NCBI GenBank assembly: GCA_902797845.1
Contig: CADBUJ010000066.1
Location: forward strand, 1,399-65,398
DNA length: 64,000 nt
DNA from: an uncultured Eubacteriales bacterium
GTDB taxonomy: Bacteria > Bacillota > Clostridia > Lachnospirales > Lachnospiraceae
Direction: 5' to 3'
Below, piece by piece: positions 33,135-42,625 of this stretch. Each line of letters starts with the position of its first letter. Positions within the stretch are counted from its first letter, which is position 1. Below the pieces are notes generated by a model. The model ran no database searches and was not told the DNA's origin. It was given only the letters and a program-made list of their open reading frames with translations. Made by a program: the position numbers and the translations under genes.

Positions 33135-33252
33135 ATATCACTTGTCCGTGAACAGGCAGAGCATCATTAAGATGACTCTGCCTGTTTTCGGGAAAAACAA
33201 AAGGTTTTGGGGTATAATAAACAAAAGACCCGGAAACTTAAGAGGGATGAGC

Positions 33253-34377
33253 ATGAAAAAGAAATTGGTTTTATTTATCCTGACAGGTTTTATGATATGC
33301 CTTTTTGCAGCAGGCTGCGGACTTGGGGATATAGATCTTAATAAGTATCTTTCGGTGGATTTTACCGGCTACAACGGATACGGAAGGGCCACCGTAAACT
33401 TTGATTTCGAAAAGCTGGTGGAGGGGCACGAAGATAAGCTTGCCAATACTACCTTTTACGAAATGGCATATGCGGCCTGGGGAAACCTGGACCGCAGCGA
33501 ATCCTTAAGCAACGGCGAAAGGGTGGAATTTACGTGGACCATAGACCAGGATGCCCTAAAGGCCTTTGAAGATACTTATGATGTAAAGATAAGATACAGA
33601 GACACATCATTTAAGGTATCAGGGCTTACTCCCACGGAAGATCTTATACAGGTGGATCCCTTTCAGCATGTGGATGTTACCTTTAAGGGCGAATCGGGAG
33701 AGGCATCCATAGTAATAACGGATCATAACGGGCTTGAGGGCCTTACCTTCGAAGTGGATAAATATAACGGTCTTAAAAACGGGGAGGAAGTAAAAGTATA
33801 TGCTTCCTTTGACGACGAGACCATGATGGATGACGGATTCTTTATAACTGTCAGGGAAAAGACGTATACGGTTTCGGGATTAACGGAGCTTGTGGATGGC
33901 TTTGACCGCATTACAAAGGATGCAGACAGCCGTATGGATAAAGCCTTAAGGGACATTATCGTAAATGATGCCAAAGAGGAGTGGACATACGGGGAAAGAG
34001 GCATAACGGATATTTCCCTTGTAAACAGAGTCTTTCTTAAAAGAAAGGAAGGATATTTGGGCCCCGGCAACATGGTATGCTACATATACAGGATACTTGC
34101 GGGTGATACGGCAGACGAAAAGGTGGAGTATTACTGGTACGGCTGTTTTTCGGATCTAAAACGTACCGGAGATAATACGGATATGAAAATGGAAGAAGCG
34201 GCGATGCCTTTTGCATCATTAAAATGGTATATGGTCGCAGGAGACTGCTGCAGCACGGGAAATACGGACAAAGAAGGGGCTCTGTATTATTACAAGGGCT
34301 TCAGAGAGGAAGCGGATGTCCTTAACAGGATAAGAGAAAGATACGGACAGGAATATGATATAGAAAAAGAAAAATAA
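33253..34377 (+). CDS. Lipoprotein of unknown function
   Basis: AGAGGG before ATG 33247/33253. Signal and lipobox MKKKLVLFILTGFMICLFAAGC. The ORF track start at 33142 is an upstream extension. Confidence 0.5.
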   Translation: MKKKLVLFILTGFMICLFAAGCGLGDIDLNKYLSVDFTGYNGYGRATVNFDFEKLVEGHEDKLANTTFYEMAYAAWGNLDRSESLSNGERVEFTWTIDQDALKAFEDTYDVKIRYRDTSFKVSGLTPTEDLIQVDPFQHVDVTFKGESGEASIVITDHNGLEGLTFEVDKYNGLKNGEEVKVYASFDDETMMDDGFFITVREKTYTVSGLTELVDGFDRITKDADSRMDKALRDIIVNDAKEEWTYGERGITDISLVNRVFLKRKEGYLGPGNMVCYIYRILAGDTADEKVEYYWYGCFSDLKRTGDNTDMKMEEAAMPFASLKWYMVAGDCCSTGNTDKEGALYYYKGFREEADVLNRIRERYGQEYDIEKEK

Positions 34378-35253: not shown

Positions 35254-36189
35254 TCAGGTGCGACGTATGTTAGAGTCAAAAAACTTATTGTAGCCAAGCC
35301 ACGTATCTTCGGGCCGGGCATTATCAAGGGCTTCCTTAAAGGTCTGGGCTCTGGCATCCATGTTGTCAGCCATATGGAGTGCAAGGGCCTCGATAAGCTC
35401 CGGCTTCTTGGGAGAACCGTATTCCAGCTGACCGTGATGAGATGCTATGCAATGAAGGAACTCCGTTCTGAGGAGAGGCGGAAAGCCGTCTATCTTATCT
35501 ATCTCATGGCTTAACATATCAAGACCGATGATGATGTGACCCAGCATATATCCTTCGTCGGAAAAATCATTCTGGGGAAGAGCGGTAAGCTCCTTCGTTT
35601 TTCCTATATCGTGGCAAAGGGCGGAAGCCATTAAAAGATCCCTGTTTAAAAAATCGTAATGGCTGCTGTAGAAATCGCAGATGTCTGCCACCGAAACAGT
35701 ATGCTCCAAAAGCCCGCCCATAAAGCTGTGGTGGATGGTCTTTGCAGCTGAATGGGATGCAAAGATCCTGGCAAAGGCTCTGTCCTTTATAAATAGATTC
35801 TCGCAAAGCTGCTTTAAATGAGGCTCTTTTATGGAGTCTATATATGACATAAGGGCCTTGTAGAGGATGTCCCTGTCCTTATCCGTGGAAGGGATATAAT
35901 CCTGAATATTGTATTCTCCCTCCGATGCCTTTCTTACTCTTGTTATATTAAGCTGCGGAGCGTCTTTAAAGATCGTGACCGTGGCATCTACCTGAATAAG
36001 ATCCATGGGTTCAAAGCTTTCGATGGCATTGGTAAGATCCCATACCTTGCCGTCTATCTGACCTGTTTTGTCCTGCAGGACAAGGGCATAATAGTTCTTG
36101 CCGTTTTTTGCGATCTGCGTAAGCTTTGTTTTACAAAGGTATATTTCCCTGACGGAATCGCCTTCTTTAAGTGATGCTATCTCTCTCAT
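35254..36189 (-). CDS. yhaM: 3'-5' exoribonuclease YhaM-like (OB fold plus HD domain)
   Basis: ATG 36189 (MREIASLKEGD). OB-fold N-terminus. HD domain motifs HSFMGGLLEHT and CHDIGK. Confidence 0.8.
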   Translation of the reverse strand: MREIASLKEGDSVREIYLCKTKLTQIAKNGKNYYALVLQDKTGQIDGKVWDLTNAIESFEPMDLIQVDATVTIFKDAPQLNITRVRKASEGEYNIQDYIPSTDKDRDILYKALMSYIDSIKEPHLKQLCENLFIKDRAFARIFASHSAAKTIHHSFMGGLLEHTVSVADICDFYSSHYDFLNRDLLMASALCHDIGKTKELTALPQNDFSDEGYMLGHIIIGLDMLSHEIDKIDGFPPLLRTEFLHCIASHHGQLEYGSPKKPELIEALALHMADNMDARAQTFKEALDNARPEDTWLGYNKFFDSNIRRT

Positions 36190-36427
36190 TTTATCTCTGC
36201 CTTCTGTAAATCTTTTTGAAAATAATACAAATGGATTATAGCATAGGGCCGACGCAGGCAAAAGTGCTGTACTCACAAAGTGGGGGTATCAAAGCTGTCT
36301 GAAAGGCTATGTGCATGAATAGGGAAGCCCACATCATCTCTACATCATTTCTGGTGGCATAAAACATGAAAAATGTAATTTATAATTACAATATTTGTAA
36401 AAAAAATACAAAAAACGAGAAAATAAA

Positions 36428-36456
36428 TTGACATTGCGATTTAAGAATGCTATTAT
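36428..36456 (+). promoter_or_regulatory. Consensus sigma-A promoter driving the AT-rich island
   Basis: TTGACA, a 17-nt spacer, then TATTAT with TG at the extended -10 position. AAAGGAGGAGG RBS follows before ATG 36482. Confidence 0.6.
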
Positions 36457-36481
36457 TCGTACACAAAGGAGGAGGCTAGGA

Positions 36482-37738
36482 ATGCTTTTACAATTTAACG
36501 TTTCAAATTTTATGTCAATAAAAGATGAAATTACGCTAACAGCATTTGCAAATGCAAGCAAAGAACATGAAGATAGTTTAATTATTTGTGGAAAAGAAAG
36601 GGTATTGCCCACTCTTGCGATTTACGGGGCGAATGCTGCCGGTAAATCAAATATTTTCAAAGCCTTGACAAGGGCTATTATGCTGGTTCGTCTATCTAAC
36701 AATTTGCAAATCAATTCTCCGACAGGATTTGAACCGTTTTTGTTTGATGATAAATCTAGGAATGGTAAAACCAAGATAGATTTTCTGTTTTATCACAATG
36801 GAAAAAAATTTGAGTATGGATTTACGGCTGATAGACAGTACATATATGAGGAATACTTGTATGAATATAAGACGTCGAAGCCAACAATGATATTTGAGAG
36901 AACAAATATCAAAGACTTTAAGTTCACGACGGCATATAAGGATTTAGCGCAATACAAAGGGAAAAATACATCCAATAAACTATTTATGTGTACGGCAACT
37001 GCATGGAACTGCAAAGCAACAAAAGATGCATTCCTATGGTTCTCAGAAAGCATTGATACATATAATAAGTTTTCTTTTGATGACACGGATCAATTACTAG
37101 GTTATTTAGATATTCACAAAGATAACCCAGAAACAAAGAATTTCATGTTATCTTTACTTAAGCATGCAGAAATAAATATTCAAGATTACGAATTTGAATC
37201 ACAGGTAGTGGAGAATCCAAGCATACCATTACCACCGGGGATTACGATTGATCAGGCTTTATTTGGCGAGATGAAGCGATTTCGTCTAGAAACGGTACAC
37301 CAGATTGAGGATGAGAAAGGTAGATTTCAATCATATAGATTAAATTATGATCATGAATCAGAGGGGACTAAGAGATTGTTTGCTTATGGTCCTATTATCA
37401 TGGATGCATTGAAAAAAGGAAGAACAATAGTTATTGATGAAATTGACAATAGTTTACACACAAATTTGACTAGGTATTTGATAGGATTATTTAATGATTT
37501 AAGTGTAAATAGGAATGGAGCACAATTAATATTTAATTCCCATGATGTAAGCCTTCTTGATTTAGATTTGTTAAGGAGGGATCAAATCTATTTTGTTGAA
37601 AAGAACAACAAAACAGGGGTTACAGATCTTTATTCGCTGGCTGATTACTCTCCAAGGAAAAATGAGAATATTCAAAGGGGATATTTACAAGGCCGTTACG
37701 GAGCAATCCCGTTTATTTCTGGAGGGATTGAATGGTAA
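36482..37738 (+). CDS. ABC-type AAA ATPase (AAA_21/AAA_15-like, AbiLi/RloA-like)
   Basis: Walker A GANAAGKSN, signature-like ESEGTKRLF, Walker B IVIDEIDNSLH, H-loop FNSHD. No TM or nuclease domain. Confidence 0.8.
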   Translation: MLLQFNVSNFMSIKDEITLTAFANASKEHEDSLIICGKERVLPTLAIYGANAAGKSNIFKALTRAIMLVRLSNNLQINSPTGFEPFLFDDKSRNGKTKIDFLFYHNGKKFEYGFTADRQYIYEEYLYEYKTSKPTMIFERTNIKDFKFTTAYKDLAQYKGKNTSNKLFMCTATAWNCKATKDAFLWFSESIDTYNKFSFDDTDQLLGYLDIHKDNPETKNFMLSLLKHAEINIQDYEFESQVVENPSIPLPPGITIDQALFGEMKRFRLETVHQIEDEKGRFQSYRLNYDHESEGTKRLFAYGPIIMDALKKGRTIVIDEIDNSLHTNLTRYLIGLFNDLSVNRNGAQLIFNSHDVSLLDLDLLRRDQIYFVEKNNKTGVTDLYSLADYSPRKNENIQRGYLQGRYGAIPFISGGIEW

Positions 37739-38358
37739 AAAGAATTAAGAAAGTAACAAAAAATAGGGCAACACGTAGACGGAAAAAACTTATCATTATA
37801 GGGACAGAAGGGTTCAATAAAAGCGAAATACTCTATTTACATGAACTTGAGAAAAAACAAGAAGAGTATCATTTCCTGTTTGCACATGGAAACGAAACAG
37901 ACCCGGTTAAAATAGTGCGAAATACGGAAAGAATGGCTAGGATTGAAGAAATATCATATGAGGAAGGAGATATGGCTTTTAGCCTTTTTGATTTGGATTT
38001 AGATTCAGCAAAGGAGAAACAGCTAAAAAAAGCAAAGGAATTAGCTTTAAAGAATAACATCAAACTGATAACATCCAATCCATGTTTTGAAATATGGTAT
38101 TTGCAACACTTTGGATTTACTAGCAAGCCATTTGCAAGTTGCAATGCAGTTGTGAAAGAGCTTTTAAAGAAACTTCCCAAATATCAGAAGAATTACTGCG
38201 ATATTGATACGTTTTATCCACTGACAGAAGAAGCAATCTATAATTGTAAAAGACTAATTGAATTCCATAAAAACAATGGGGTAAGAAGTGAATTTGCTAA
38301 CCCAATAACGGGTGTGTATAAAATAGCGGAAATACTCTTTCATAAGGAAGATGTATAA
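37732..38358 (+). CDS. RloB-like (Toprim/OLD-related) protein, AbiLii-like
   Basis: Overlaps the ATPase stop by 7 nt. N-terminal KLIIIGTEGFNKSEILY (cf. RloB CEGxxTE) and C-terminal SNPCFEIWYLQHF (RloB signature). Confidence 0.7.
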   Translation: MVKRIKKVTKNRATRRRKKLIIIGTEGFNKSEILYLHELEKKQEEYHFLFAHGNETDPVKIVRNTERMARIEEISYEEGDMAFSLFDLDLDSAKEKQLKKAKELALKNNIKLITSNPCFEIWYLQHFGFTSKPFASCNAVVKELLKKLPKYQKNYCDIDTFYPLTEEAIYNCKRLIEFHKNNGVRSEFANPITGVYKIAEILFHKEDV

Positions 38359-38601
38359 AAAAGTTTAACGAAACCTTCGACTACTGATGAGCTCTGAAAG
38401 GGGGTGATAATAAATTGATTAGCAAAAGAAAAGCACCAAATGATTGCTGGAACAATCAACTTGGTGCAAGTCTTCGAATGGAATTCATTCGTTGTTGTAC
38501 GAAGATGATAACAAAATTCGGAGACATTTACAAGAAAAATTTGCCAAGGAAACAAGCTATGTGCATAACAAAAAAATGTTTTCGAAAGGAGAATATTATC
38601 T

Positions 38602-39354
38602 TTGGAAAAAAATAATAAATTTAAGAAAATTACAAATAATTATGTCAGAACCCTGTTCCTTTCATATCTAGTGGAGGGGGCAGAATGGACGAAACCAGAT
38701 GGATATCCAATTATTGAAAAATGGATGGTGGCAGATAATCCACCAAAGGAAGCTTTTCAGTGGGATTGCAGGCATGAAGCGATTGAGCCAGAAATAACAG
38801 GGATGTCCTTTTACTGCAGAGATGAGAAGTTCACTCCGATATTAAATAATCCCCGCAATTATGTGGATAAACTATCTAAATATGAATGTATTATTGGTCT
38901 AGATGCAAGTCCCTACGACAATATGCCATTGGCAGTTCAGAAAAGCCAGATCTATACCAATCTTGCAATTACATATTTCTTTGGAGCACAGGGATTGAAA
39001 GTAATCCCCAACATCAGGTTGGGAAATGACAAAACAATCGGGATGCTAGATGCCATACCAAAAGAGTGTTTAATAGCAGTAGGTACAAATGGCTTTATGC
39101 GCAATATTGAAACCAGAAGAATATTTCGAAATCAAATGGCGATAGTTGTAGATGCACTTCGACCCACTGGTATTATCGTGTATGGTCCGGCATATGATTA
39201 TGTGTTTCAATCTGCGATTGATTCAGCAATACCTATTTATCAATACGATTCCCATACCATGAAACGTAATGCCGAAATACATTCGAGGACAAGAGCAAGA
39301 AAACGGAAGGCTAAGTCTAACACAAAGTTAGAAGGTGAATGTATTGAAGGGTAA
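38602..39354 (+). CDS. DUF4417-like protein
   Basis: TTG start after AAAGGAG (an in-frame GTG at 38671 is also possible). FYCRDEKF...IGLDASPYDNMPLAVQKSQIYTN...GLKVIPNIR recalls DUF4417 from memory. AT-rich codon usage matches the island. Confidence 0.45.
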   Translation: MEKNNKFKKITNNYVRTLFLSYLVEGAEWTKPDGYPIIEKWMVADNPPKEAFQWDCRHEAIEPEITGMSFYCRDEKFTPILNNPRNYVDKLSKYECIIGLDASPYDNMPLAVQKSQIYTNLAITYFFGAQGLKVIPNIRLGNDKTIGMLDAIPKECLIAVGTNGFMRNIETRRIFRNQMAIVVDALRPTGIIVYGPAYDYVFQSAIDSAIPIYQYDSHTMKRNAEIHSRTRARKRKAKSNTKLEGECIEG

Positions 39355-39715
39355 TTGGCCTGGCTTTTCTGGTGCGAGATTAGGAGGGAAACAGGATGGC
39401 GATGGCGGATATATTAATGGTGAAGATTATAATTCTGCAGGCTCAAGCAGCGTTGGGAAAGTTGATTCAATTACAACATTATCTAATGTCCATTCTGTGC
39501 CCACCACATCCGACCCAAATTCAGTCACAAAGAACTATAAGGACGGAAAACTAAATAGCGAAAGATATTACGATGAAGATGGGAATGCCTATTTAGATAT
39601 TGATTATAGTAACCACGGGAACCCATGGACTCATCCACAAGTACCGCACGAACACAGCATATCATTTGATGAAAACGGCAATATGCATAGAGGAAAGGAA
39701 AAGGATATAGAATAA
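39335..39715 (+). CDS. Glycine-rich protein ending in a YD-repeat-like/His-rich module, possibly an orphan polymorphic-toxin C-terminal fragment
   Basis: GTG start only, overlapping the DUF4417 stop. No signal peptide. SERYYDEDGNAYLDIDYSNHGNPWTHPQVPHEHSISFDENG. Confidence 0.3.
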   Translation: MNVLKGNWPGFSGARLGGKQDGDGGYINGEDYNSAGSSSVGKVDSITTLSNVHSVPTTSDPNSVTKNYKDGKLNSERYYDEDGNAYLDIDYSNHGNPWTHPQVPHEHSISFDENGNMHRGKEKDIE

Positions 39716-39960
39716 TGACGAAAGAATTACTAAAAGAATACGTTGATTATGGCAGAGAGATTGAGTTCAAATACAACGAAAAAATGTATTCGATTACGTA
39801 TAGTCCTGCAGATCAAGACGATTATATTTCATTTTGTGAGTTCTATAAGGAGCCAACTAATGTCAAAACATTTGATGAGCTACTTGAAATATCTCGTGAG
39901 GGGGTAACGGTGCTTCAAATGTGGGAAGATCTTACTGAGGATAATATTTGGATATATTAA
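39715..39960 (+). CDS. Small acidic protein, immunity-protein-like
   Basis: 81 aa. Its ATG shares one nt with the upstream TAA (TAATG coupling). No recognisable motif. Confidence 0.3.
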   Translation: MTKELLKEYVDYGREIEFKYNEKMYSITYSPADQDDYISFCEFYKEPTNVKTFDELLEISREGVTVLQMWEDLTEDNIWIY

Positions 39961-40252
39961 TAAGTGAAGGGTATGGAAAATAAGAAAATGTGATGATCGG
40001 CTTAGAAAGATTCCTACAAGGGTAAATAAGTGCTCGATACATTGGGAGCACAATACGAAAATCATTAAAGAGTTAATCTCTGCAATATATATGTTACCGA
40101 TAAGGACAAAGGGAAAAAGTTGGAATATTCATAATAAAATATGGCTTCGAAAATATATCTCGGTTATTGAATGATGAAAATAGATATAGGTTCGGGCTGA
40201 TAACCGCATGATTCTATAAAAACCGCGTTATGTGCAGGCGCTTAATCAAAGC

Positions 40253-42625
40253 ATGATAAACGAAAAAAGTCTTATAACACTGGAATTCAATAAAATACTG
40301 GAAAAGCTGGAGGCATATGCTGCATCCCGGGAGGGAAAAAAGAAGTGCCGCAGTCTTGTGCCTTTTACAGAGATCGGGATGATCGAAAGATCCCAGCAGG
40401 AAACGGAAGACGCGCTGAGCCGCATTATAAAGAACGGAGCCCCGTCCTTTTCGGGATTAAAGGATATAAAAGGAGAGATCCTCCGTCTTCAGCTGGAGGG
40501 AGCCCTGTCACAGAAAGAGCTTCTTGATATAGCATCATCAATGGAGACAGCCTGCAGGGTAAAGGCCTATGGAGGTACGCCTGAAGAAGGAGAAGAACCT
40601 GACAGCCTTCAGGAGTATTTTGACGGGCTTTTCGATCTGGGCCATGTATCCAGGGAGATAGGAAGATGCATTATCTCAGAAGACGAAATGGCTGATGATG
40701 CATCATCTGCCCTTAAGGATATACGCCGGAAGATGAAGAATGCCGGAGAAAAGATAAGGGTAGAGTTAAACAGGATATTAAGCAGGGAAGCCTCTGCAGG
40801 GACTCTTCAGGAAAACATCATCACCATGCGAAGCGGGAGATACGTAATACCCGTAAGAGCAGAACATAAGAGCAAGATAAGGGGACTGGTGCATGATCAA
40901 TCTTCATCCGGATCCACTGTGTTTATCGAGCCCATGGCAGTAGTGGAGCTTAATAACGAGATACGGGAGCTGGAATCAAAGGAACTTGAGGAGATAAACC
41001 GTATCCTCAAAAAGCTGTCGGAAATGGCCGCAGAATACAAGGATGAGCTCCGCTATAATCTGGAAAACCTTACGGAACTGGATTTTATCTTTGCCAAAGG
41101 GCATTATGCAAAAGAAACGGAAGGCATAAAGCCTTCCTTTAATACAATAGGTACCATTCTTCTTAAAAAGGCAAGACACCCTTTGATCGACAGAAAAAAA
41201 GTGGTTCCCATCGATATGATGCTTGGTGAGGACTACAGGATGATGATAATAACCGGCCCCAACACAGGAGGAAAAACAGTTTCCTTAAAGACCACAGGGC
41301 TTTTGTGCCTAATGGGTCAGGCGGGCCTGCATATACCTGCGGGAGACGGCTCCAGCCTGTTTCCTTTCAGGGATATCTTTGCAGACATAGGGGACGAGCA
41401 GTCCATCGAGCAGAGCCTTTCAACTTTTTCATCCCATATGACAAATCTTGTAAAGATAATAAATGATGCAGACAAAAATTCTCTTGTACTGCTGGATGAA
41501 CTGTGCTCCGGAACGGATCCCACTGAGGGAGCTGCTCTCGCCATGGCTATGCTTAAAAATTTCCTTATGCGGGAAGTAAGAGTAATAGCAACGACTCATT
41601 ACAGCGAACTTAAGGTCTTTGCCCTTTCAACTAAAGGAGTAATAAACGGAAGCTGCGAATTTGATGTGGGAACACTCAGCCCCACATACAGACTTCTTAT
41701 AGGTATACCAGGTAAGAGCAATGCCTTTGCCATAGCAGAGAAGCTGGGACTTCCCGGCTTTCTTATAGATGATGCCAGAAAACGCCTGGATTCGGAGGAT
41801 GTGGCCCTGGAGGATGTCATATCCGAACTGGAGGATAAAAGGACCAGAATAAATAAGGATCTTACGGAAACGGAAAAAGCAAAGCTGGAGGCCGAAAAGC
41901 TTCGTGATGCCCTGAAGAAGCAGGAGGAAAAGATCGAAGACCGCAAGGAAAAGATAATTTCCGAGGCCAAAAGAGAGGCGGCAGAGATCCTTAAAAAAGC
42001 AAAGGATACTGCGGACAGCACAATTAAGGAGCTTAATAAGCTTGGAGCCGCAGACGGCAGGAGCCTTGAAAGGATAAGGGGAGAGCTCCGGGAGGAGCTT
42101 GATAAAGTATCTGAGAAGAAGGCCCTTGGGGTAAAGAGAACAGGAAAGGAATTTACGGAGAAGGATGCTGCGATAGGAACATTTGTTAAGGTCCTTTCCA
42201 TGAATACAACAGGCAGGATAATAGGACGCCCCAACAAGGCGGGAGAAGTAGAGGTCCAGATGGGAATAATAAGGGCCAATATTAAGCTTACGGATCTGGA
42301 ACCTGCCGCGGAGCAGGAGATCACAGGCCCGAGCATCAAGGGGACCGGAGCAGGAAGGATAAGGATGCAGAAAACATCCTCCATCTCGTCTTCCCTTAAT
42401 CTTATAGGCCTTACAACGGCAGAAGCGCTGGGAGAACTGGACAAATATCTGGATGATGCTTATCTTTCCAGACTTGAATCGGTACAGATCGTTCACGGAA
42501 AGGGCACGGGAGCCTTAAGAAATGCGGTGCATAAGAAGCTTAAGGAGACATCCTTCGTAAAGGATTACAGGCTTGGCAATCCCGGAGAGGGAGATGCGGG
42601 AGTCACCATAGTTACATTTAAGTAA
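40253..42625 (+). CDS. mutS2: Endonuclease MutS2
   Basis: Walker A GPNTGGKTV, DELCSGTDP, long coiled-coil, and a C-terminal Smr domain (IVHGKGTGALR). Confidence 0.9.
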   Translation: MINEKSLITLEFNKILEKLEAYAASREGKKKCRSLVPFTEIGMIERSQQETEDALSRIIKNGAPSFSGLKDIKGEILRLQLEGALSQKELLDIASSMETACRVKAYGGTPEEGEEPDSLQEYFDGLFDLGHVSREIGRCIISEDEMADDASSALKDIRRKMKNAGEKIRVELNRILSREASAGTLQENIITMRSGRYVIPVRAEHKSKIRGLVHDQSSSGSTVFIEPMAVVELNNEIRELESKELEEINRILKKLSEMAAEYKDELRYNLENLTELDFIFAKGHYAKETEGIKPSFNTIGTILLKKARHPLIDRKKVVPIDMMLGEDYRMMIITGPNTGGKTVSLKTTGLLCLMGQAGLHIPAGDGSSLFPFRDIFADIGDEQSIEQSLSTFSSHMTNLVKIINDADKNSLVLLDELCSGTDPTEGAALAMAMLKNFLMREVRVIATTHYSELKVFALSTKGVINGSCEFDVGTLSPTYRLLIGIPGKSNAFAIAEKLGLPGFLIDDARKRLDSEDVALEDVISELEDKRTRINKDLTETEKAKLEAEKLRDALKKQEEKIEDRKEKIISEAKREAAEILKKAKDTADSTIKELNKLGAADGRSLERIRGELREELDKVSEKKALGVKRTGKEFTEKDAAIGTFVKVLSMNTTGRIIGRPNKAGEVEVQMGIIRANIKLTDLEPAAEQEITGPSIKGTGAGRIRMQKTSSISSSLNLIGLTTAEALGELDKYLDDAYLSRLESVQIVHGKGTGALRNAVHKKLKETSFVKDYRLGNPGEGDAGVTIVTFK

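Follow-up and report, generated by a model that had tools for sequence, protein, structure and literature searches.

The 64-kb stretch of DNA examined here, referred to as the window, comes from an uncultured Lachnospiraceae-like Firmicute (contig CADBUJ010000066.1) and carries a 3.9-kb AT-rich island (36300-40230) between two housekeeping genes, a yhaM-like gene and mutS2. The island holds five co-directional genes on the + strand that encode an ABC-like ATPase, a RloB/Toprim protein, a DUF4417 protein, a toxin-like protein, and an immunity-like protein. This layout and these domain calls had been given in an initial annotation made from the DNA letters, and they hold. The same annotation proposed the island as an uncharacterised conflict system, and that proposal stands in part: all five genes are of conflict type, but the AbiL half (the first two genes) is known, and two modules are recognised rather than one. 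The best explanation, to which we assign a probability of about 0.7, is that the segment is a horizontally acquired composite conflict islet in which an AbiL system stands beside a phage-derived DUF4417-toxin-immunity module used in phage/mobile-element conflict.

Composition of the island and its AbiL genes

The AT-rich segment is compositionally foreign. Its guanine-plus-cytosine (GC) content is 35.0% compared with 45.5% for the remaining window, the lowest value among all windows of 3.9 kb (mean 44.8%, standard deviation 2.3%). GC at third codon positions (GC3) is 0.29-0.34 in the five island genes versus 0.48-0.52 in proC, yhaM, mutS2, and rlmD, and the first island gene, abiLi, has the minimum GC3 among the 31 long open reading frames (ORFs) of the window. 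Sliding-window GC and codon usage had been proposed as checks on a sharp drop claimed from two hand-counted lines, and windowed and third-position GC bear the claim out. Both hand counts are exact (23.3% for 37441-37500 and 50.0% for 35401-35460), and the full profile is less extreme but clear, with GC declining at ~36300 and recovering at ~40300 in 100-bp steps. The reported lack of mobility features is likewise sustained: none of the five island proteins (0/5) matches an integrase or transposase family, no tRNA gene was found within the window, and no convincing direct repeats flank the island. An Rfam search of 35800-40600 returned no match.

By their domain content, genes 1 and 2 make up a full AbiL system, which is an abortive-infection system of an already known kind. 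The first gene, abiLi (36482..37738, + strand), encodes a 418-residue ABC/Rad50-like ATPase that matches the PADLOC model PDLC02335 AbiLi (E=1.3e-90, 301.8 bits) and Pfam AAA_21 (E=2.5e-32), with both Walker motifs intact (A, GANAAGKS, residue 49; B, IVIDE, residue 316). The second, abiLii (37732..38358, + strand), overlaps abiLi by 7 nt and encodes a 208-residue RloB/Toprim (OLD-type) protein that covers the complete Pfam RloB profile (E=1.6e-30, positions 1-195 of 195), matches PADLOC AbiLii (E=1.6e-15), and bears Toprim-like acidic motifs (GTEG and DLDLD) by inspection. An AbiLi-type ATPase gene and an AbiLii-type RloB/Toprim gene thus lie adjacent on the same strand, as the gene content of AbiL demands, and the PADLOC run suggested in the initial annotation identified the full system here. 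The pair had been counted there as uncharacterised, which does not survive. Beyond AbiLii, the second protein gave just one weak CARF match against the PADLOC models, and an exact-sequence look-up of AbiLi gave no record.

Experiments defined the AbiL of Lactococcus as a self-sufficient abortive-infection system made of two genes. Together with PARIS and RloAB, it is classed as an ABC ATPase plus a TOPRIM/OLD nuclease, and the trigger and target of the family are still unknown (PMC13064643). The window pair resembles AbiL of the Lactococcus lactis plasmid pND861 and RloAB-type systems in its overlapping ABC/Rad50-like ATPase and RloB/Toprim genes, but the L. lactis system is plasmid-borne whereas this one is chromosomal. 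PARIS (AriA/AriB) is a mechanistic relative with a different second gene. AriA models match AbiLi partially (E=8.4e-33, best stretch residues 302-378) and no match to AriB, the DUF4435-type Toprim partner of PARIS, was obtained; because the AriA match is partial and the second gene matches AbiLii without an AriB match, the system is assigned to AbiL and not to PARIS. If AbiL works like PARIS and other ATPase-plus-Toprim systems, the AbiLi ATPase would probably sense a phage component and then free or activate the AbiLii nuclease, which would abort the infection.

The AbiL operon has a predicted promoter of sigma-70 type at 36428..36456 (+ strand; TTGACA-17-TATTAT, TG-extended), in agreement with the initial annotation. 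This site scores 11 of 12 matches, is the top promoter-like site within 36000-40400, and lies 26 nt 5′ of an AGGAGG ribosome-binding site and the ATG at 36482. The start of abiLi is taken to be this ATG rather than the TTG at 36428 because the promoter at 36428-36456 is followed by AGGAGG and the ATG. The class of promoter-like sites shows no enrichment (10 observed versus 19 expected).

The DUF4417, toxin, and immunity genes

Genes 3-5 are a discrete, recurrent, and, judging from their overlaps, translationally coupled cassette. The DUF4417 gene (38602..39354, + strand) encodes 250 residues from a TTG start. The predicted small toxin gene (39344..39715, + strand; 123 residues) overlaps the DUF4417 stop by 11 nt, and the start of the predicted cognate immunity gene (39715..39960, + strand; 81 residues) overlaps the toxin stop (TAATG). 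In front of the three genes is a conserved noncoding leader (38399..38601, + strand). By blastn, homology between the window and six related loci (L007-L012) is confined to 38399/38421-39960/39961. It runs from the intergenic leader, which elsewhere lies 3′ of a Peptidase_M78 (M78) gene, through the stop of the 81-residue gene, and conservation of the leader across L007-L012 equals that of the coding DNA. The exact DUF4417 protein also occurs in L004-L006, from three other metagenome samples, with the same arrangement and 100% identity to the window. DUF4417 homologues of 56-79% identity sit in quite different chromosomal neighbourhoods, where, without exception, a toxin-like gene of ~114-130 codons overlaps the DUF4417 stop and a gene of ~81 codons follows. 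The triad is found without AbiL in at least 17 unrelated contigs (L007-L017, L096-L101). Because cassette DNA homology is limited to 38399-39961 and the triad occurs elsewhere without AbiL, the five genes are, on this comparative evidence, two separable modules (36428-38358 and 38399-39960) and not one system. Inactivation of the toxin gene had been suspected in L007, L014, L016, L017, and L099 and was rejected, as the DNA is identical to that of sister loci and the gene calls differ.

In 17 related loci an XRE-family helix-turn-helix gene and a Peptidase_M78 gene (ImmA/IrrE, COG2856) adjoin the cassette, 5′ of it in 16 (L007-L012, L014-L017, L096-L101) and 3′ in L013. Some cassette loci also adjoin integrases or transposases (L100, L101, L012, L095), and the neighbours in L012 include restriction-modification genes. 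No XRE-M78 pair lies in the island, and tblastn found neither gene anywhere in the 64-kb window. Models for such switches are ImmR/ImmA and DdrO/IrrE (PMC2701414, PMC6868357), and the XRE-M78 pair that likewise adjoins the 17 related cassettes suggests de-repression by repressor cleavage. Measured against XRE/COG2856-controlled modules as a class, the regulators adjoin the cassette in L007-L017, L095, and L096-L101 and are missing from the island. In the usual form of the cassette, by analogy with these switches, the M78 protease would cleave the XRE repressor and so de-repress the cassette; here AbiL occupies the XRE-M78 place. No consensus promoter was detected in the 243-bp gap between abiLii and the DUF4417 gene. 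With the regulators absent and AbiL in their place, transcription of the cassette probably starts in its leader, or the AbiL promoter drives it by read-through.

The leader contains a 35-nt inverted repeat (38433-38467, GCACCA..TGATTG..CAATCA..GGTGC) and a second hairpin (38475-38491, CGAATG..CATTCG), and its predicted RNA fold has an energy of -23.7 kcal/mol (z = -4.3). A small ORF in the leader was considered and rejected, since L009 has an early in-frame stop and the ORF is not conserved. A structured RNA lacks covariation support, as the stems are invariant and are broken without compensation in L100, although the fold is stable. An RNA element is one possible role of the hairpins; another is an operator bound by the XRE repressor, which this locus lacks.

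The 123-residue toxin begins with an MKGNWPGF motif, continues with a Gly/Ser-rich linker, and ends in a His-rich all-beta domain (H..GN...HP.VPHEH). What the initial annotation called a toxin-like fragment is a full-length gene of a stand-alone family. Nearly all of its 42 close homologues stand alone at ~117-133 residues and share the start MKGNW.GF (and variants), the N-terminal region, the Gly/Ser-rich linker, and an invariant core (NSV.KNYKDGKL.SERYY..DG.AYLDIDY.NHGN...HP.VPHEH). Each related cassette locus (L007-L017, L099-L101) has an intact copy of the gene whose 5′ end overlaps the DUF4417 stop. A truncated 107-residue copy without DUF4417 or the 81-residue gene was seen in Lachnobacterium bovis (L102, JHWB01000013.1, 6001-6324), in an island that also bears Mrr_cat, SLFN/AlbA_2, and WYL genes; this type (L102/L103) is the sole decayed copy seen.

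A profile search of 1.8 billion representative proteins with the toxin gave 700 matches that place its domain behind different N-terminal parts. Phage_Mu_F and Phage_min_cap2 proteins carry the domain at their very C-terminus. It comes after a HINT-like pre-toxin end in P0254 and after transmembrane segments in P0257, and stands behind Sec signal peptides and Lys/Pro-rich linkers in the small proteins P0313 and P0327. It also ends the minor capsid protein of Clostridioides difficile phage phiCDKH02, the post-portal protein of Streptococcus phage Javan578, and, there after a PT-TG pre-toxin domain, the 676-residue "toxin" of Paenibacillus larvae phages. Because it ends MuF, Phage_min_cap2, PT-TG, and HINT-like proteins, the domain is read as a polymorphic-toxin C-terminal module, one common to proteins with different N-terminal trafficking modules. 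The window protein itself matches a PHROG annotated "toxin" (E=1.5e-9) and would be toxic in the cytoplasm. It has no signal peptide and no trafficking or secretion domain, the toxin domain being preceded by the eight-residue conserved start and the Gly/Ser-rich linker, with no Pfam domain. In P0352 the domain precedes a Tox-WTIP domain and so may not always be the terminal effector.

Matches to Ntox24 (PF15529) recur over the same toxin region at 15-22 bits against a gathering score of 24 (window protein 16 bits, L015 toxin 19.8 bits, best distant member 22.4 bits), in 7 of 32 family members and 6 of 10 distant members. Every score is below threshold and so falls short of showing membership of Ntox24; since the matches are consistent nonetheless, the toxin is probably a distant branch of that family. 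The AlphaFold2 model is all-beta with a predicted local distance difference test score (pLDDT) of 77, a PDB sequence search gave nothing significant, and four invariant histidines suggest a metal site. A Prp-like cleavage motif was noticed in two toxin leaders (L096 6785-7153 and P0267; ELNIQLF'A and KLNIQFF'G). The Prp site is known from ribosomal protein L27 and from phage 80alpha capsid and scaffold proteins (PMC9405229). Prp-type cleavage of the leaders was dropped as a candidate, the motif being present in 1 of 191 family members plus the L096 toxin and missing from the window toxin.

The 81-residue protein has 90 homologues, almost all of 81-82 residues, and matches PHROG 3711 (E=9e-8). 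Its profile aligned by hhalign with gp31 of phiCDKH02, encoded 3′ of the MuF toxin (E=5e-5, probability 68%), and with Paenibacillus phage gp26, encoded 3′ of the toxin there (E=4e-4). P0346 joins, within a single ORF, the toxin domain and an immunity-like domain right behind it (E=1e-5, probability 82%). As in polymorphic-toxin systems, then, a small gene directly 3′ travels with the toxin domain. The immunity assignment follows from the homology of the 81-residue protein to small genes 3′ of phage toxins, and the protein would be the cognate neutraliser of the toxin.

The DUF4417 protein matches Pfam DUF4417 (PF14386; E=9.5e-31, 107 bits versus a cut-off of 28.9) and has 378 homologues, in which many invariant Asp, Arg, Asn, and Gln residues suggest an enzyme. 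Its AlphaFold2 model (pLDDT 82) has an alpha/beta fold with weak TIM-barrel, EAL, and TGT-like matches, and a PDB sequence search gave nothing significant. In L096-L098, where DUF4417 is 56% identical with XRE and M78 genes 5′, the next gene encodes 122 residues that share just the start (MKGNSPLF) with the window toxin, and an unrelated 114-residue gene follows. In the IMG/VR contig L095, where DUF4417 is 37% identical, XRE and M78 genes again lie 5′ and a large serine recombinase is nearby, and the next gene overlaps DUF4417 by 11 nt, starts with MATKG, and has a third, unrelated C-terminal part. The gene in the immunity position of L095 (4527-5249) encodes three Cys_rich_CPCC repeats (PF14206, E=4e-33). 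Ahead of the exchanged toxin parts, just a short N-terminal motif (M-K-G-x-x-x-x-F) persists. Judged by these loci, DUF4417 is the constant partner behind exchangeable toxin and immunity pairs, and exchange behind a constant gene and leader follows the logic of polymorphic toxins with the constant part on a separate protein. DUF4417 might bind or process the N-terminal leader of the toxin, as an adaptor or activator.

Set beside known systems, the cassette is, by its gene content, an undescribed variant of the polymorphic toxin-immunity system. The MuF polymorphic toxins of temperate phages (Jamet et al. 2017, PMC5576092) share its C-terminal toxin domain and a homologous small immunity gene directly 3′. 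They are portal- or capsid-linked through a MuF domain, whereas the window toxin is a stand-alone protein coupled to DUF4417, lacks a MuF domain (PF04233/PF06152), and has no phage structural genes nearby. In Ntox24 and other classical polymorphic toxins (PT-TG, PT-HINT, LXG-like), the domain follows PT-TG and HINT-like pre-toxin modules; in contrast, the window toxin has no trafficking domain and its constant part is a separate gene. S8-PTS is a three-component polymorphic-toxin system of peptidase, toxin, and immunity protein (PMC9424270). Its accessory is a subtilase where that of the window is DUF4417, and its toxins carry a signal peptide and a BetaH domain, both absent from the cassette toxins, which have XRE and M78 regulators attached.

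Phage relatives and the insertion site

Phages carry DUF4417 genes that stand alone or are fused to ParB_N. Those of Streptococcus phages lie at the entrance to the packaging module, those of mycobacteriophages at the left end of the genome. Phage DUF4417 genes adjoin packaging genes, and fusion to the ParB_N DNA-clamp domain is frequent (bioRxiv 10.1101/2025.10.10.680097). In many Mycobacterium cluster A-like and Gordonia phages, DUF4417 is gene 1 or 2 at the extreme left end, adjoining packaging genes and in some cases annotated "nuclease." Directly 3′ of the DUF4417 gene (gp22) of phage A25, and overlapping it, is gp23 (127 residues), which has homologues in 30 phage records that include Dorea phage DO134P1 and Roseburia phage Jekyll. 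The gp23-like gene stands beside a DUF4417 or ParB_N-DUF4417 gene (or, where this is unannotated, a tblastn match) in all nine records inspected and just 5′ of terminase in all six that are annotated. Javan23 and the Dorea phage share with the window a stop/start overlap of 11 nt. With its pattern P.ET.TK..VY...YYD..NKR.KQIDL.H.H...PH.HH, the gp23 family aligned by hhalign with the toxin core profile of 169 sequences at a probability of 80% (E=1.4e-5). A single gp23 sequence was not significant against the toxin profile; just the family-to-family comparison was. Two gp23-like proteins give the same sub-threshold Ntox24 match as the toxin family. With moderate confidence we conclude that DUF4417 and this His-rich protein have long been paired in phages, and that capture of the pair gave rise to the chromosomal cassette, with an immunity gene and regulators added.

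The place where the island now sits was compared, as the initial annotation had proposed, with the yhaM-mutS2 interval of relatives. In 14 metagenome contigs of family-level relatives (~50% protein identity) yhaM and mutS2 are divergent neighbours and none of the five island genes is present, a result that fits an accessory island, with the relatives being distant ones. Their yhaM-mutS2 gap is 1.4-3.5 kb; in the nine intervals inspected, eight have a gene for a ~430-residue membrane protein, and in all nine the GC content equals that of the own locus. This membrane-anchored protein gene (L022, L028, L030-L033, L048-L050, L068, L072, L077, L091) is absent from the window interval, and rlmD, which lies beside yhaM in those relatives, comes after mutS2 in the window. 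The different position of rlmD and the absence of the membrane-protein gene indicate that the neighbourhood was rearranged. The scan of genome contigs with yhaM gave relatives of at most 53% identity, and the metagenome scan with MutS2 gave full-length relatives of at most ~60%. The only close strain found, L020 (99% identity), bears the left end of the island. It diverges from the window at ~34408, left of proC; this position, 2 kb left of the island, would be another point of strain variation. A gene at 2341-3384 of L020 replaces the 411-residue gene of the window (33142-34377) and resembles, by eye, the C-terminal part of a large serine recombinase.

The left flank of the island is the yhaM-like gene (35254-36189, - strand), which encodes an HD/OB-fold protein, and the right flank is mutS2 (40232/40253-42625, + strand). 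The start of mutS2 is ambiguous between GTG 40232 and ATG 40253, neither with a clear ribosome-binding site, and the 790-residue version of MutS2 has no exact protein record. Between the cassette and mutS2 is an AT-rich spacer (39961..40231, 33% GC), delimited by composition and by the end of cassette homology at 39960/39961, in which no conserved feature was found; whether it is an island remnant or the native upstream region of mutS2 is uncertain.

Weighing the explanations

The role of the cassette can be explained in several ways. Under the best explanation, it would be a phage-derived toxin-immunity module that bacteria use in phage/mobile-element conflict. Defence or exclusion is weighted highest because of the neighbours (AbiL here and restriction-modification in L012), the regulators, and the lack of an export signal. 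Several results weigh against this explanation or its parts. Comparison of the DUF4417 model with solved structures gave no significant match (best E=5e-3, template modelling score ~0.3), the toxin reaches no Pfam family at threshold, and a fold search of the PDB with its model found no significant neighbour. The homology of gp23 to the toxin is moderate, as a narrower profile gives a probability of 35% (E=4e-4). Because just two exchanged toxin-immunity variants were seen (L095 and L096-98), the claim of a constant partner draws on few cases. Neither of the usual regulators, XRE and M78, is present in the island or matched elsewhere in the window. Finally, the search for close strains yielded none with an empty site, so that recent insertion is argued from composition and distant relatives.

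The first alternative is that the cassette is a weapon, with the toxin exported, or packaged in phage or phage-like particles with DUF4417 as carrier, in order to kill competitors or prime newly infected cells, and with the 81-residue protein shielding the producer. Several facts favour it: as part of MuF proteins, the domain is a passenger of phage capsids (Jamet et al. 2017, PMC5576092), some family members (P0313, P0327) have Sec signal peptides, the toxin-immunity pair behind DUF4417 is exchangeable like those of competition toxins, and phage DUF4417 genes lie beside packaging genes and are often fused to ParB_N. However, the window toxin has neither a signal peptide nor a known trafficking domain, and no secretion or virion genes neighbour any of 20 cassette loci. 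Two scans of 2.9 million IMG/VR contigs found the cassette arrangement in one contig (L095, DUF4417 37% identity), along with three distant DUF4417 relatives, and a plasmid collection searched with DUF4417 gave no match. XRE and M78 control and restriction-modification neighbours suggest instead an intracellular module triggered by stress or phage. We regard the weapon as an unlikely explanation, if one that deserves attention.

The second alternative is a selfish toxin-antitoxin addiction module without a defence role, whose adjacency to AbiL would be accidental. This explanation differs from the best one in biological role and not in parts; what the parts are, how they are coupled, where the modules end, and how the toxin and immunity domains are distributed can be read from the sequence itself. 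A two-gene toxin-neutraliser core with coupled translation suits an addiction module, as do the integrases and transposases that adjoin some loci (L100, L101, L012, L095) and the classing of XRE and COG2856 (M78) modules with mobile toxin-antitoxin-like elements (Makarova et al. 2009, PMC2701414). Addiction leaves the strictly conserved DUF4417 partner and the phage gene pair unexplained, however, and we consider it rather improbable.

A single new defence system of all five genes, with AbiL as sensor and DUF4417-toxin-immunity as effector arm, would account for the co-directional, tightly packed genes, and for a strong predicted promoter 5′ of gene 1 with none detected in the 243-bp gap. The identical arrangement in L004-L006 seems to speak for it too, but these have the same sequence as the window and lend no independent support. 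Cassette DNA homology stops ~40 nt 3′ of the abiLii stop, at least 17 loci have the triad but no AbiL, and AbiL is a self-sufficient two-gene system in Lactococcus (PMC13064643), all of which make a single system very doubtful.

That genes 4 and 5 are an orphan C-terminal toxin-immunity remnant of a decayed polymorphic-toxin locus, with DUF4417 an unrelated neighbour, has in its favour that orphan pairs are common in such loci and that the domain otherwise sits at the C-terminus of long toxins, but it is scarcely credible given 42 homologues that nearly all stand alone at ~117-133 residues with a conserved MKG start and N-terminal region, an intact gene that always overlaps the DUF4417 stop in L007-L017 and L099-L101, the same 11-nt overlap in L095 and phages, and a truncated copy without DUF4417 just in L102/L103.

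The composite conflict islet therefore remains the best explanation, and of its two halves the cassette carries the greater weight. The AbiL half adds one more member to a known family. For the other half, a more far-reaching version is tentative and rather doubtful in its full extent: DUF4417 as the constant partner (adaptor, activator, or carrier) of a new class of small toxins of phage origin, perhaps loaded with the DNA, that bacteria use as an inducible suicide or exclusion device, with the toxin a new metal-dependent (His-cluster) enzyme. If this is true, phages would have a gene pair at the packaging-module entrance whose product is possibly loaded with DNA, and bacteria would have captured that pair and added an immunity gene and an XRE/M78 switch. 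DUF4417, which is widespread in Streptococcus phages and mycobacteriophages, gains its first consistent genetic partners and a testable functional context. The toxin domain and the immunity family, both without a Pfam model, are common to phage capsid toxins and chromosomal cassettes, and the related loci suggest a five-gene architecture of XRE, M78, DUF4417, toxin, and immunity that the PADLOC models tested do not recognise. The parts are small and easily cloned, which makes toxicity, neutralisation, and the role of DUF4417 directly testable.

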